A stretch of 39,953 bases of DNA, from the IMG/VR virus record IMGVR_UViG_2563366923_000006; one strand, given 5' to 3'. The notes under the pieces were generated by a model that was not told where the DNA came from, did not search any database, and saw only the letters and a list, made by a program, of their open reading frames with translations. The stretch comes from a virus (taxonomy: Duplodnaviria; Heunggongvirae; Uroviricota; Caudoviricetes). Positions 33,197-39,577 of this stretch are shown piece by piece. Positions within the stretch are counted from its first letter, which is position 1, and each line of letters starts with the position of its first letter. The translations under genes were made by a program, and so were the position numbers.

Positions 33197-33865
33197 ATGC
33201 ATCGTATAGACACGAAAACCGCGCAGAAGGATAAGTTCGGCGCGGGTAAGAACGGTTTTACCCGTGGTAATCCCCAGACTGGTACGCCTGCCACCGATCT
33301 GGATGATGACTACTTTGACATGTTGCAGGAGGAGCTTTGCAGCGTTGTGGAGGCATCCGGTGCCAGCCTGGAGAAGGGGCGGCATGACCAGTTGCTTACC
33401 GCACTTCGCGCACTGCTGTTAAGCCGCAATAATCCGTTTGGTGATATCAAATCGGACGGCACGGTACCAACGGCTCTCGAAAACCTTGGTTTAGGAGATA
33501 TCAGTGCTACAGGTGTTGCGACAGGTAGTATGGGCGGAACCGGATATGCCATATTTCCGATGATGATTGGCGGTGCACGTAAGACTTTTATTATGCAATG
33601 GGGATTGCTGACGCCTCTGAAATCAGGTGGCTATGTGAATATTAACCTTCCTGTCGCTTTTCCTACTATGGTGATGCAGGCATATGCAACACATGATAAT
33701 GCGACACTAAACACACGCCCGACAGTATATGCAATTACTACAACAAGCCGAACCACTATCACTGCGACGGCGACGTGCTTAGATGCTGGCTCAGTGGGCG
33801 CTACAGTGACACGCAGTAGTGACGATACTGCGTGTTACGGTCGTTATTTTGCAATAGGGTGCTGA
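33197..33865 (+). CDS. Tail fibre protein; constant N-terminus fused to variable C-terminus inside invertible segment
   Basis: [10 protein letters not shown]-terminus typical of e14/Mu-type fibres; recombination site inside the gene. Confidence 0.8.
33475..33498. repeat. Invertase crossover site, left (hix/gix-like; GAAAACC-TT-GGTTTAG)
   Basis: Inverted partner at 35337-35362; encodes ENLGLGD. Confidence 0.65.
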
Positions 33866-33866
33866 A

Positions 33867-34310
33867 ATGAATCTTAAATATTTTTCTCCATCTGAAAATG
33901 CGTTTTATGCCGGGGAGCTTAAAGAAAGCTATATCGCTGCTGGCTCATGGCCTTCTGATGCCTCGGAGGTTGATGAAAGTCTTTATCTTGAGTTTATCGA
34001 TAAACCGCCAGCAGGTAAGTATCGAGGAGTGGATAATGCAGGAATGCCCTGCTGGCTTGAAATTCCTCCTCCCACAGTAGAGGAAATGGCATCGAATGCA
34101 GAGAATATAAGACAGCAGCTCATTGATAAGGCAAATGTTTATATAAACAATCGTCAGTGGCCGGGAAAAGCAGCGATAGGCCGTTTAAAGGCAGATGAAC
34201 TGGAACGATATAACCTTTGGCTGGATTATCTGGACGCACTGGAACTGGTCGATACTTCCGGTGCGCCAGATATTGAATGGCCTACGCCTCCGGCAGCTCA
34301 GGCCAGATGA
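33867..34310 (+). CDS. Tail fibre assembly protein (Tfa)
   Basis: C-terminal LDYLDALELVDTS-APDIEWP motif. Confidence 0.75.
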   Translation: MNLKYFSPSENAFYAGELKESYIAAGSWPSDASEVDESLYLEFIDKPPAGKYRGVDNAGMPCWLEIPPPTVEEMASNAENIRQQLIDKANVYINNRQWPGKAAIGRLKADELERYNLWLDYLDALELVDTSGAPDIEWPTPPAAQAR

Positions 34311-34884
34311 CATCCGGCGCGGTGCTGGTATCCGTTGCCGTCACCGCGTCAATGTAATCCAGCACAGCGTTTAATCGGGTGGTTTCTGTCTGCGTCAGCT
34401 TCCTCCCGGCCTGCAATTTCAGTTGAATCAGACTAATGGAAGCCATTGCAGTATCAATCAGTGACTGACGCTGTGCTTCTGCCGCGCTTACTGCGGCGCT
34501 ATGCTGTGCCTCAGTATCTGTCACCCATTTCTCACCATCCCATTTATCGTATGGCGTTAACGGGGCGATAGTGGTTGTATTTTCGGGGTAATCACCCAGA
34601 GCTGTGATTTCTTTGGCGTCTCCCGTTTCGGTGTTATAGACGATTTCACCGCGATGGTCTGGCACATATTCCCATGAGTTTAAATCTGCCGAACGGCAGA
34701 TTGCATAACCAGCCTTATGTATACCAGGTTCATCCAGACAGGAATATGCCGGGATACCAACACCAACGGCAAGATATTCATTTGAAGTGGAAATATATTC
34801 CCGAGTTTCACCATCATAGCTATAGACGGTAATATCCCCCGCCTTCGTGGCAATAAGCTCGCTATTTAATACAGCGTTATCCAT
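34282..34884 (-). CDS. Alternative tail fibre assembly protein (Tfa')
   Basis: Shares C-terminal LDYIDAVTATDTSTAPDVIWP motif with Tfa. Confidence 0.75.
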   Translation of the reverse strand: MDNAVLNSELIATKAGDITVYSYDGETREYISTSNEYLAVGVGIPAYSCLDEPGIHKAGYAICRSADLNSWEYVPDHRGEIVYNTETGDAKEITALGDYPENTTTIAPLTPYDKWDGEKWVTDTEAQHSAAVSAAEAQRQSLIDTAMASISLIQLKLQAGRKLTQTETTRLNAVLDYIDAVTATDTSTAPDVIWPELPEA

Positions 34885-35349
34885 TATGCAGCCCTCACGA
34901 TAAAGTTAAATGCAATATTTCGCGCACGTGTTTCCGTTGATGTTCTGGCAACAAGTGATGCATCAAAATAATAATTCGCCTGTTTATATGTACCACCTGT
35001 CGCAATTGGTGTGAGATTTGGTTGCACTATTGAAGAGGTAAATGCGCCGAAAGTATTATTATTTGTCCCCGTGGTCATATCAAAAAAGCTACCTGTAATA
35101 TTTTGCAGCGTATCGCTCTGAGCACTCAATAACGCTCGCCCACTGTCCACTCCACGCCCATCATCCCAGCCACGAATAAACTCACCCCGCAGATCTGGCA
35201 GCACAAGACCGGGGTAAACCAGTGCCAGCTTCGGATAATTTTCAGCTGCAAATGGAGCGCCGTTACATTTCAGCCATCCTGTTGGTGGAGTGGCTAAAGG
35301 CCACGGAACAGGCACACCAACGGGTAATGCCGAACCTTCTCCCAAACCA
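34884..35349 (-). CDS. Alternative tail-fibre C-terminal cassette (Sv'), expressed only after inversion
   Basis: Begins at crossover (INVGLGEGSA); LPDLRGEFIRGWDDGRG tail-collar-like motif. Confidence 0.65.
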
Positions 35350-35362
35350 ACGTTTATGAAAA
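35337..35362. repeat. Invertase crossover site, right (CCAAACC-AA-CGTTTAT)
   Basis: Reverse complement matches left site around the TT core. Confidence 0.65.
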
Positions 35363-35416: not shown

Positions 35417-35973
35417 ATGCTTATTGGCTATGTTCGCGTATCAACAAATGACCAGAACACCGATCTACAACGTAATGCGTTGAACTGTGCAGGATGTGAG
35501 CTGATTTTTGAAGACAAGATAAGCGGTACAAAGTCCGACAGACCAGGACTGAAAAAGCTGCTCAGGACATTATCGGCAGGTGACACGCTGGTGGTCTGGA
35601 AACTGGACCGACTGGGGCGCAGTATGCGGCATCTTGTCGTGCTGGTGGAAGAGTTGCGCGAACGTGGCGTTAATTTTCGCAGCCTGACGGATGCTATTGA
35701 TACCAGCACACCAATGGGGCGCTTTTTCTTTCATGTGATGGGTGCCCTGGCTGAAATGGAGCGAGAGTTTATTGTCGAACGTACTAGGGCGGCTTTGCCG
35801 CAGCACGACAAGAAGGGAGGAACGGTGGGCGAAAGCCAAAGCTGACAGTAGAACAATGGGGGCAGGCTGGCAGGTTGATTGAATCGGGAATATATCAGCA
35901 GCAAGTCGCACTGATTTATGATCTGGGTATTTCAACGGTGTATAAAAAATTCCCTGTAGCAAGTAAACCATAG
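35417..35973 (+). pseudogene. Serine DNA invertase (Pin/Gin/Hin family), apparently frameshifted, separating the catalytic domain from the C-terminal HTH
   Basis: Catalytic domain intact to ~35790, then premature stop at 35845; the +1 frame continues as a Gin-like HTH (PKLTVEQWGQAGRLIESGI...) to 35973. Confidence 0.65.
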
Positions 35974-35999: not shown

Positions 36000-36695
36000 T
36001 TATGCACTATTTTTAGGTCTTGTAACCCGAGGTGGGAGTTGTTTGGTTATATGTTCAAGTGATTTTTTGCCCAAGATAGTTCTTTGGACAAAACTTTCTA
36101 TAGCTTCTAGCATTTGTTCGAACTCACTTTTATTCGGGCTCCAACTGCGATGTGCGGCGGCGTTTCCTGCATCAATTACTGAAGATATAACGCATGCCTC
36201 AGTGTCGCCTATGACTCCATCTTGTTTTAATTTTTCAACTTTTTCACCAAGCGGCAAACCGGGGTGAATTTGTAACAGTTCAGCAGTTCGATCAAAAATC
36301 GTCCGTAAACCGATGGACGAAAGAATGAAATGGTCAGAAGTATATGAAGAATACATTTCATTAAATATTTGAAAGAGCTGACGATCAACTGATTCAAGCT
36401 TGGATAACCATATCGGAGCTTGAAATGTTTCAGCGGCAGGATAGGTAGTGATCATATCTATAGGCGTTTCTACAAATTCACCATCACGATATTCGTGGGT
36501 AGTATGCTCACTGAAGTGTTCGTTGTGGTGATAGAAGACAGTATCACAGCCATTGCATTGGAGTAGGTGATGGTAATGGTACCCATAAACTGGATATTGG
36601 GAATCCTCCCAGCTAGTGGTTAGCTTCCCATGCACAGTGCAGTTACGTAACCCACCGCATGTAGGGCAAAGAGCCTTGAGTATTTCCTTTTTCAT
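36000..36695 (-). CDS. Cargo protein: N-terminal zinc ribbon (CxxC...CxxC) plus C-terminal helical domain resembling DUF4145
   Basis: Cys pairs C10/C13 and C47/C50; C-terminal GDTEACVISSVIDAGNAAAH resembles the DUF4145 GNxxAH motif (recalled); AT-rich. Confidence 0.55.
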   Translation of the reverse strand: MKKEILKALCPTCGGLRNCTVHGKLTTSWEDSQYPVYGYHYHHLLQCNGCDTVFYHHNEHFSEHTTHEYRDGEFVETPIDMITTYPAAETFQAPIWLSKLESVDRQLFQIFNEMYSSYTSDHFILSSIGLRTIFDRTAELLQIHPGLPLGEKVEKLKQDGVIGDTEACVISSVIDAGNAAAHRSWSPNKSEFEQMLEAIESFVQRTILGKKSLEHITKQLPPRVTRPKNSA

Positions 36696-37353: not shown

Positions 37354-38451
37354 TCAAGAGGTCTTATTTCTGCTCCTTTGGAGCTCTTCAAAACGATTAT
37401 GTAAAGATTTCGGATACAGTTCGGTATATACCTGCCATAGCACGTTTAATGAACGATGCCCTGTAACTTGGGCGACTTCCTCAATACTAAAACCAGCCTC
37501 AAATAAGCGACTTGCCCCTTCTCTACGCAAATCATGGTATCGCAGATCCTTAATACCTAATTTGCTTCTTACTCTCTGAAATCCCGCAGTAACAGAAGTG
37601 CTGTTATATGGAAAAATGAATTCCGATTTTTGGGGCTGTCGTTGGACGATATCCCAGGCTTCCCCAAGCAAGGCTACTTTCATGTGGTTACCTTCCTTTT
37701 TGCGTGGATCTTTCCTGTCTCTTACGAGTATAGATTTTTGTTCCTGGTCGAGATCTTCCCATCGTAACCGGCATACTTCTCCGATTCGCATACAGGACCA
37801 TACAGAAAATTTGAGGATATCAACGAACGGAATTTTTGAGCATTTATGAGTAGATCGTTGTTGAAGGCCTGCAATGAGCATGTCCAGTTCATCAGATGCT
37901 GGTCTACGATTACGACGGTTTGATTTACCAATCAAACCAAGTTTAAGTAGATATGGGCGAGCGCTTTTCGCCGGGTTTGATGTGTAATTAATTCCGTATA
38001 CAGGTTTGGCCGCATCCAGAACACTGCCAAGATAACTAACATCGTGGCTGACTGTTGCAGGACCTGCACCAGCGTTGTTTCTTAGCCTGCAATGTTCAAT
38101 TACGTCATTTTCTGTCAGTTCAGATAGTTTGATCGCGGAGATGTCACTATCCATAAGCAGTTCCAGCACATATCTTTTAGTACGGCCTGCTTTACCTCCG
38201 GCATTTGGGTCATTTAAATATTTGTGTAGTAAGTCACGGACTGTAAGTCCGTCAACTGCATTTGATGATGGAATGCCATATAGATCTAATTCCATCACTT
38301 TCTGTGTGCCCCATGTTTTGGCATGAGCATGTTTAGGGAATGTTTTGCTTTCCCTGTAAGTGATAACACCTTTTTCTTTGATAATCACATTACAGCGATA
38401 GCGTGGTGTGCCATCGGATTTTAGTCGTTTCTCTATGTTATAGTACGCCAT
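37354..38451 (-). CDS. int: Tyrosine integrase (dusA-associated type)
   Basis: 365 aa with C-terminal catalytic motifs (HDLRR ... VTGH ... Y); abuts dusA. Confidence 0.9.
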   Translation of the reverse strand: MAYYNIEKRLKSDGTPRYRCNVIIKEKGVITYRESKTFPKHAHAKTWGTQKVMELDLYGIPSSNAVDGLTVRDLLHKYLNDPNAGGKAGRTKRYVLELLMDSDISAIKLSELTENDVIEHCRLRNNAGAGPATVSHDVSYLGSVLDAAKPVYGINYTSNPAKSARPYLLKLGLIGKSNRRNRRPASDELDMLIAGLQQRSTHKCSKIPFVDILKFSVWSCMRIGEVCRLRWEDLDQEQKSILVRDRKDPRKKEGNHMKVALLGEAWDIVQRQPQKSEFIFPYNSTSVTAGFQRVRSKLGIKDLRYHDLRREGASRLFEAGFSIEEVAQVTGHRSLNVLWQVYTELYPKSLHNRFEELQRSRNKTS

Positions 38452-38539: not shown

Positions 38540-39577
38540 ATGCACGATAATCATGAAACACAAAAAATTAATCAAACCAGCGTGATGCCTGAAAAAACTG
38601 GTGTTTACTGGAATTCTCGGTTTAGCATTGCTCCTATGCTCGACTGGACGGACAGACATTGCCGCTATTTCTTGCGTCTGCTTTCCCGCAATACGTTGCT
38701 GTATACTGAAATGGTAACTACAGGGGCGATTATTCACGGTAAAGGTGATTACCTGGCGTATAGTGAAGAAGAACATCCGGTAGCGTTGCAACTCGGCGGT
38801 AGCGATCCGGCGGCGCTGGCGCAGTGTGCGAAGCTGGCAGAAGCGCGTGGATATGATGAGATCAACCTGAATGTCGGCTGCCCGTCTGACCGGGTGCAGA
38901 ACGGCATGTTTGGTGCGTGTCTGATGGGTAATGCGCAGCTGGTTGCCGACTGCGTGAAAGCGATGCGCGATGTGGTGTCGATTCCGGTGACGGTGAAAAC
39001 GCGTATTGGCATCGACGACCAGGACAGCTATGAATTTCTCTGCGATTTCATCAACACCGTTTCCGGCAAAGGCGAGTGTGAGATGTTCATCATCCATGCA
39101 CGTAAAGCCTGGCTTTCGGGGTTAAGTCCGAAAGAAAACCGTGAGATCCCGCCGCTCGATTATCCGCGTGTGTATCAACTGAAGCGTGACTTTCCGCATC
39201 TGACAATGTCGATTAACGGTGGTATCAAGTCGCTGGAAGAGGCCAAAGCACACCTGCAACATATGGATGGCGTGATGGTCGGGCGCGAGGCGTATCAGAA
39301 TCCGGGTATTCTGGCGGCGGTAGACCGGGAGATCTTTGGTTCCTCGGATATCGATGCCGATCCGGTGGCGGTAGTGCGCGCCATGTATCCGTACATTGAG
39401 CGTGAACTCAGCCAGGGGACGTATCTCGGTCATATTACCCGGCATATGTTGGGCTTGTTCCAGGGTATTCCTGGCGCGCGGCAGTGGCGGCGTTATTTAA
39501 GTGAAAATGCCCATAAAGCGGGTGCAGACATTAATGTGCTGGAACACGCGCTCAAACTGGTGGCGGATAAGCGTTAA
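38540..39577 (+). CDS. dusA: tRNA-dihydrouridine synthase A; 5' end probably element-derived
   Basis: 345 aa typical DusA; first ~35 codons AT-rich unlike the rest of the gene. Confidence 0.9.

Follow-up and report, generated by a model that had tools for sequence, protein, structure and literature searches.

Organization of the Prophage and Its Tail Fibre Switch

The stretch of DNA analysed here, called the window in the following, comprises 39,953 nucleotides of a virus record (IMG/VR, IMGVR_UViG_2563366923_000006) and is apparently a complete SfV/e14-like temperate myovirus prophage located at dusA. It consists of an early region, the genes for terminase, portal, capsid, sheath, tube, tape measure, and baseplate at 15.4–33.2 kb, and, downstream of these, the tail fibre switch, the invertase, a DUF4145 gene, a DinI-like gene, and a tyrosine integrase abutting dusA and pspG. 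The integrase (37354–38451, minus strand) is found directly upstream of dusA (38540–39577), which is followed by pspG, and this is the known arrangement of dusA-targeting integrases. In the related prophage of strain UTAK-14 it is the integrase which is frameshifted and not the invertase. The DUF4145 protein (36000–36695, minus strand, 231 amino acids), whose gene has the invertase on one side and the DinI-like and integrase genes on the other, is conserved in nearly all related dusA prophages (WP_001514810.1). Searches in PADLOC and NCBIfam yielded no match for it, and its gene looks like a cargo (moron) gene.

The tail fibre switch is made up of two crossover sites (pix sites), two alternative fibre ends, and two assembly genes, and is situated beside the invertase gene. 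Coordinates of these features are collected in Table 1. The pix sites are inverted relative to each other and both follow the pattern ...AAAC(C/G) TT GGTTT..., that is, 26 bp with 12-bp half-sites around a 2-bp core, and their central dinucleotides match. The left inner half-site of the window, GGTTTAGGAGAT, differs from the common form, GGTTTGGGAGAA. When the invertible segment was flipped in silico, the silent arm joined the constant part in frame and yielded a fibre of 249 amino acids with a collar domain, so that a full-length fibre is obtained in either orientation. The two assembly genes are convergent, and their 3′ ends share 29 bp (34282–34310) halfway along the segment; tfaP and tfaE of e14 show the same overlap, as do all relatives examined. 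All cis parts, that is, pix sites, fibre ends, and assembly genes, are intact in the window, and the invertase alone is broken.

Table 1: Features of the tail fibre switch and of the invertase locus in the window.
Feature	Position	Strand	Properties	Basis
Expressed tail fibre	33197–33865	+	222 aa; constant N-terminus 33197–33485 plus Gp53-like variable end	Gp53-like_C, E=3e-11
Left crossover site (pixL)	33474–33499	+	CTCTCGAAAACC TT GGTTTAGGAGAT; inside the tail fibre gene at the ENLGLG motif	
Invertible segment	33486–35350		1,865 bp, from one central dinucleotide through the other; contains two assembly genes and two alternative C-termini of the fibre	
Assembly gene paired with the Gp53-like end	33867–34310	+	147 aa	Caudo_TAP, E=1e-31
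tfaE-like assembly gene paired with the silent end	34282–34884	-	200 aa; tfaE in relatives	Caudo_TAP, E=9e-33
Silent fibre C-terminus	34884–35350	-	Tail-collar type	Collar, E=4e-12
Right crossover site (pixR)	35337–35362	+	TTCTCCCAAACC AA CGTTTATGAAAA; same sequence as the right e14 site	
Invertase pseudogene, 0 frame	35417–35845	+	142 aa; resolvase catalytic domain; native through ...ERTRA	Translation, Pfam
Displaced frame	35789–35973	+	End of helix E, GRKPK minor-groove arm, HTH_7 DNA-binding domain	Translation, Pfam, alignment with Gin and PinE
Site of the 1-bp deletion	35791–35792	+	GG versus GGG in intact alleles (GCGGC versus GCGGGC)	Alignment and allele counts

The Frameshifted Invertase Gene

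The true start of the invertase gene is the ATG at 35417, and a longer mechanical open reading frame from 35381 was set aside. Translated from this ATG, the 0 frame reads MLIGYVRVSTNDQ...EREFIVERTRA, continues with 17 out-of-frame residues (ALPQHDKKGGTVGESQS), and terminates at a TGA at 35843–35845. The frame counted from 35419 reads GGFAAARQEGRNGGRKPKLTVEQWGQAGRLIESGIYQQQVALIYDLGISTVYKKFPVASKP and extends to a stop at 35971–35973. Pfam scores of the two pieces are far beyond chance: Resolvase (PF00239) was found at residues 3–135 of the first piece with E=5e-49, and HTH_7 was found on the second piece, in a different frame from the catalytic domain, with E=2e-11. Both domains were detected together in the protein repaired by one added G. 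Homology of this repaired protein to members of the Din family extends over the full length, as residues 1–181 align with Mu Gin (PDB 3UJ3, E=1e-90), PinE of e14 can be aligned along the whole length with close resemblance, and the intact sister alleles of strains UTAK-14 and T309.Ta3 correspond to it as well. The serine nucleophile lies inside the sequence YVRVST, and the motif YVRVSTNDQ is conserved with PinE and Gin. Alignment with the two sister alleles assigned the missing base to the GG listed in Table 1. The sequence-only reading of this locus had described a catalytic domain reading cleanly from a start at 35417 until a stop at 35845, a Gin-like HTH continuing in another frame to 35973, and a single-base loss from GGG to GG near 35790, and on all of these points it proved to be correct.

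Enzymes of the Hin, Gin, and resolvase type need a DNA-binding arm and an HTH domain for their function. The in-frame C-terminal HTH which characterizes the small serine invertases of the Din family (Pin, Gin, Hin, and Cin) is missing at this locus, and judged by the biochemistry of Hin, Gin, and resolvase an enzyme with neither arm nor HTH in frame should be inactive. The invertase encoded by the prophage itself is thus considered most likely dead. As the catalytic domain and HTH_7 are in separate frames, the locus is a pseudogene of a Din family member rather than a functional member. The 5′ part of the gene has been retained and is conserved; in the genes of Gin, Hin, and Cin this part contains a Fis-dependent recombinational enhancer.

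In the allele of the window two amino acid changes accompany the deletion. At window position 35768 (alignment position 352) a non-synonymous change replaces leucine by phenylalanine in the conserved ERELI(V) motif as compared to the intact alleles, and the leucine is kept in two of the frameshift carriers examined. At window position 35862 (alignment position 446) glutamate is replaced by glycine in the WEQAGRL motif, and this change is common to all frameshift carriers examined. Both changes could reflect relaxed constraint or simple linkage.

Occurrence of the Allele in E. coli Genomes

The invertase gene was compared by megablast to 5,426 complete E. coli genomes, and close relatives were found in dusA prophages. 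Short allele-specific queries detected the GG allele in 20 of the 34 complete genomes which contain this invertase lineage, and the GGG allele in 14 genomes (15 records). The GG carriers come from several continents and had been isolated from soil as well as from humans, cattle, pigs, poultry, and a dog. All 13 carrier loci which were retrieved had been labelled “frameshifted” by PGAP. The defect is therefore already known, in that the allele is present in public genomes and is flagged there as frameshifted. The 13 carrier alleles examined did not differ from each other 3′ of the deletion, whereas their 5′ third was mosaic. An invariant 3′ region together with a mosaic 5′ part fits one mutational origin with subsequent recombination among pin genes.

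Several carriers of the same frameshift have lost further parts of the module. In strain 873.10 most of the invertible segment has been deleted and neither pix site remains, in strain 720632 the left pix site is lost and the start codon of the invertase is changed from ATG to ATA, and in strain ECZP248 the left pix site is lost and the module is located away from dusA, near paoD. Some switch modules of frameshift carriers are thus degenerating, and the copy in the window is not among them.

Inversion among Carriers of the Frameshift

Two strains, 20KM0223N isolated from a dog in Switzerland and MEI148-20EC isolated from soil in Bern, contain a frameshift allele which is 100% identical to that of the window. 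Over 40,610 bp these two strains show no difference once the segment, which is 1,757 bp long in them, is reverse-complemented. Their inner half-sites are exchanged: 20KM0223N has ...TT GGTTTTGGAGAA at the left and TTCTCCCAAACC AA... at the right site, and MEI148-20EC has ...TT GGTTTGGGAGAA at the left and TTCTCCAAAACC AA... at the right site. The crossover is thereby confined to the 7 bp TTGGTTT, which include the central TT. An interval of this size is far too short for homologous (RecA-type) recombination, which was therefore rejected as the cause, and the exchange within a 7-bp core has the signature of recombination by a serine invertase. A precise inversion between strains with identical flanks which both carry the frameshift points to an enzyme acting in trans and not to the product of the frameshifted gene.

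Both orientations are also found among further carriers. The orientation in which the collar-type end is fused to the constant part was found in at least four of the 20 GG carriers (MEI148-20EC, 720632, LWY6, and TL20), and the Gp53-like-fused orientation of the window in about 11 of the 15 frameshift carriers which could be classified. For the particular segment variant of the window, full queries in native and in-silico flipped form retrieved no complete E. coli genome with a coverage of 80% or more, and queries of 150 bp across the junctions found no flipped junction and one native match (95.9%, in PigCaeca_2), so that the native form itself is almost absent. In an exact-pattern scan of metagenome and GTDB genome contigs the junction of the window was likewise absent in both its native and its flipped form, and this variant is too rare for the scan to be informative.

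Strains 20KM0223N and MEI148-20EC also differ at another locus. Their prophages at icd show 27 single nucleotide differences in 10.5 kb, despite the identity over 40.6 kb at dusA. In 20KM0223N the fibre and assembly proteins of the icd prophage are the same as those of the dusA prophage (WP_201796615.1 and WP_000289820.1), which points to gene conversion between the prophages, unless repeat polishing has introduced an artefact into one of the assemblies.

Invertases Acting in Trans

Related invertases from other prophages are capable of inverting segments of this type. PinQ, PinR, and PinE are each reported to invert the P segment of e14 at CCTTCTCCCAAACCAA/TTGGTTTGGGAGAAGG, PinE acts also on the Hin and Mu G segments, and Fin of Fels-2 acts on the Hin (H) segment (Kirigo et al., Nucleic Acids Res 2025, PMC12529663, and work cited therein). 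The sequence CCTTCTCCCAAACCAA is present exactly in the window at 35335–35350. In the same study a pinE deletion mutant of K-12 remained non-inverted under the assay conditions despite chromosomal pinQ and pinR (PMC12529663), from which it follows that switching by a helper is probably infrequent or conditional.

A candidate for such a helper is present in 20KM0223N. Its genome contains an intact pinQ of 196 amino acids at the ydfJ/Qin site, and Rac was looked for and found to be absent. At icd it contains another e14/SfV-like prophage, which is full-length and has a fibre segment of its own between pix sites (NZ_CP151045.1, 1878001–1928000). The pin gene of this icd prophage (locus positions 38748–38891) is truncated after about 41 codons and lies beside a gene for a DUF262 protein of 630 amino acids (38973–40862), and it looks as if its 3′ end has been replaced by this possible defence-type gene. 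No intact e14-type pin was present among the loci examined in this strain. Megablast gave three Pin-like DNA matches in 20KM0223N, two of which correspond to the copies already described, the frameshifted one at dusA and the truncated one at icd, and the third was not located among the loci examined. It was not attributed to pinQ, which at 37% amino acid identity is too divergent. Taken together, the inversion in frameshift carriers, the intact pinQ, and the published cross-activity (PMC12529663) make inversion in trans by the invertase of another prophage the best explanation, and the segment in this pair of strains has likely been flipped in this way, with PinQ as a candidate.

Is the Switch Locked?

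From these observations the following picture can be proposed. A 26-bp pix site connects the constant N-terminus of the fibre with one of two ends, both of which are located on the invertible 1.87-kb segment, and the gene of the invertase is placed just outside of it. The loss of a single G at 35791–35792 parts the catalytic domain from the arm and the HTH and most likely leaves the prophage with a dead invertase of its own. What is required in cis has been kept, namely both coding arms, the two pix sites with their matching central TT, and the invertase gene in its 5′ part, and a related invertase encoded elsewhere in the host could flip the segment in trans, probably at a lower and conditional rate. 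Only in hosts which do not have such a helper invertase would the segment be fixed. The switch is thus probably orphaned, rather than locked or destroyed, as it would have lost its own enzyme and could still be flipped by a helper.

All of this presupposes that the deletion is real. A one-base difference in a short run of G is an error class of some sequencing platforms, and an artefact of sequencing or assembly would mean that the actual gene has GGG and is intact. The run is merely 2–3 bases long, however, and the same GG occurs in 20 complete genomes sequenced independently in different laboratories from different hosts and countries, which argues against a homopolymer read error; it is moreover linked to downstream allele-specific substitutions, one of which is G versus A at position 446 of the alignment. 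The probability of an artefact is negligible, and the frameshift is a real inherited allele. A real frameshift could in principle be overcome during expression, if a programmed -1 ribosomal frameshift or transcriptional slippage restored some full-length invertase with low-level function. Such recoding would be in line with the GG form being the majority allele of the lineage (20 of 34 genomes), with a downstream frame which is free of additional stops and indels in all carriers, and with the inversion having happened in a carrier background. In the 57-nt overlap of the frames, to which a shift would be restricted, and throughout 35780–35848, however, neither a slippery heptamer of the type X XXY YYZ nor a homopolymer of five or more bases was found, and recoding was dismissed on this ground. 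The coexistence of intact GGG alleles in the lineage also speaks against it and marks the intact form as the ancestral design, the zero diversity 3′ of the deletion fits a recent origin rather than selection, and in one carrier, 720632, the start codon is lost in addition. Recoding can be regarded as scarcely credible.

More weight has to be given to a strict lock, in which the segment of the window's host would be permanently fused to the Gp53-like end and the silent collar-type arm would be heading for decay. This was in essence the claim of the sequence-only reading, according to which loss of the DNA-binding domain fixes the segment in its current orientation. Its first half can be kept, since the prophage's own invertase should indeed be inactivated by the frameshift, and the prevalence of the Gp53-like-fused orientation (about 11 of 15 classifiable carriers) as well as the further decay of the module in 873.10, 720632, and ECZP248 would agree with a lock. 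A fixed orientation does not follow from the loss of the domain, however, because carriers of the frameshift occur in opposite orientations (at least four of 20 in the one opposite to the window) and because two otherwise identical carriers, 20KM0223N and MEI148-20EC, differ by a precise inversion at the pix core. Against a lock are also the fully intact arms, assembly genes, and pix sites of the window and the published inversion in trans by other Pin enzymes (PMC12529663). A permanently locked segment is thus unlikely, though a reading to be taken seriously for the window's host.

A further step beyond an orphaned switch would be to assume that the GG allele is the commoner one because losing the own invertase does no harm or is even of advantage. 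Other prophages would then have taken over control of the switch through invertases such as PinQ, reportedly induced upon infection with phage T2, and the segment would be a host-controlled, infection-responsive device and not one for the host range of the phage. This is an improbable extension. It may be seen in parallel to the proposal made for the anti-adsorption protein StfE2 of e14. It is also conceivable that the product consisting of the catalytic domain only might modulate other Pin enzymes.

Implications

For annotation and interpretation it follows that a broken invertase encoded in cis should not be taken to mean a frozen switch in E. coli, where several prophages have Pin-type enzymes which can replace each other, along with pix sites of identical sequence. 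The host range of induced virions, or a surface or defence phenotype of the fibre, may still vary with what else the host contains. The strains 20KM0223N and MEI148-20EC form a natural clonal pair and a convenient example of inversion in wild strains, where the enzyme presumably acts in trans. The finding as such is an ordinary one, as both of its parts, pseudogenized invertases and cross-acting Pin enzymes, are already known.

Comparison with Known Systems

The closest counterpart in gene order is the P segment of the cryptic prophage e14 in E. coli K-12, where ymfQ, stfP, tfaP, inverted tfaE, inverted stfE, and pinE follow each other in the order also seen in the window, that is, constant fibre part, pix site, variable end with its tfa gene, inverted tfa gene with the other variable end, pix site, and pin. 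The pix sites are of the e14 type as well: the right site of e14 is identical to pixR in 26 of 26 positions, and the left site of e14, CTCTCGAAAACCTTGGTTTGGGAGAA, agrees with pixL in 23 of 26 positions, with all differences in the inner half-site. The two elements differ in that of e14 a remnant of 15 kb is left, which lies at icd and whose pinE is intact, whereas the window is an apparently complete prophage at dusA with a frameshifted pin, and the variable fibre ends are different alleles.

In the baseplate, YmfQ, and the constant region of the fibre, the serotype-converting Shigella flexneri phages SfV, SfI, SfII, and SfIV, and likewise the Escherichia phages vB_EcoM-720R4 and SKA5, share 94–97% DNA identity with the window, and the organization of the head and contractile-tail modules is the same. 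The matches to all of these phages stop at or within the variable segment, and none spans the invertase of the window's lineage. The Mu G segment with Gin, as well as P1 Cin and Salmonella Hin, belongs to the Fis-dependent Din family, and the window resembles it in the build of its 26-bp crossover sites, with 12-bp half-sites and a 2-bp core, and in alternating between tail fibre C-termini. In contrast to this family the constant part of the fibre is short in the window (about 96 amino acids) and the invertase has no in-frame DNA-binding domain.

The e14 system studied by Kirigo et al. (PMC12529663) is similar to the situation in 20KM0223N, as both contain a pix-flanked segment for which an invertase encoded elsewhere in the chromosome serves, in 20KM0223N presumably, as the flipping enzyme. 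In their system pinE was either intact or deliberately deleted, whereas in the lineage of the window a natural frameshift has spread through prophages.
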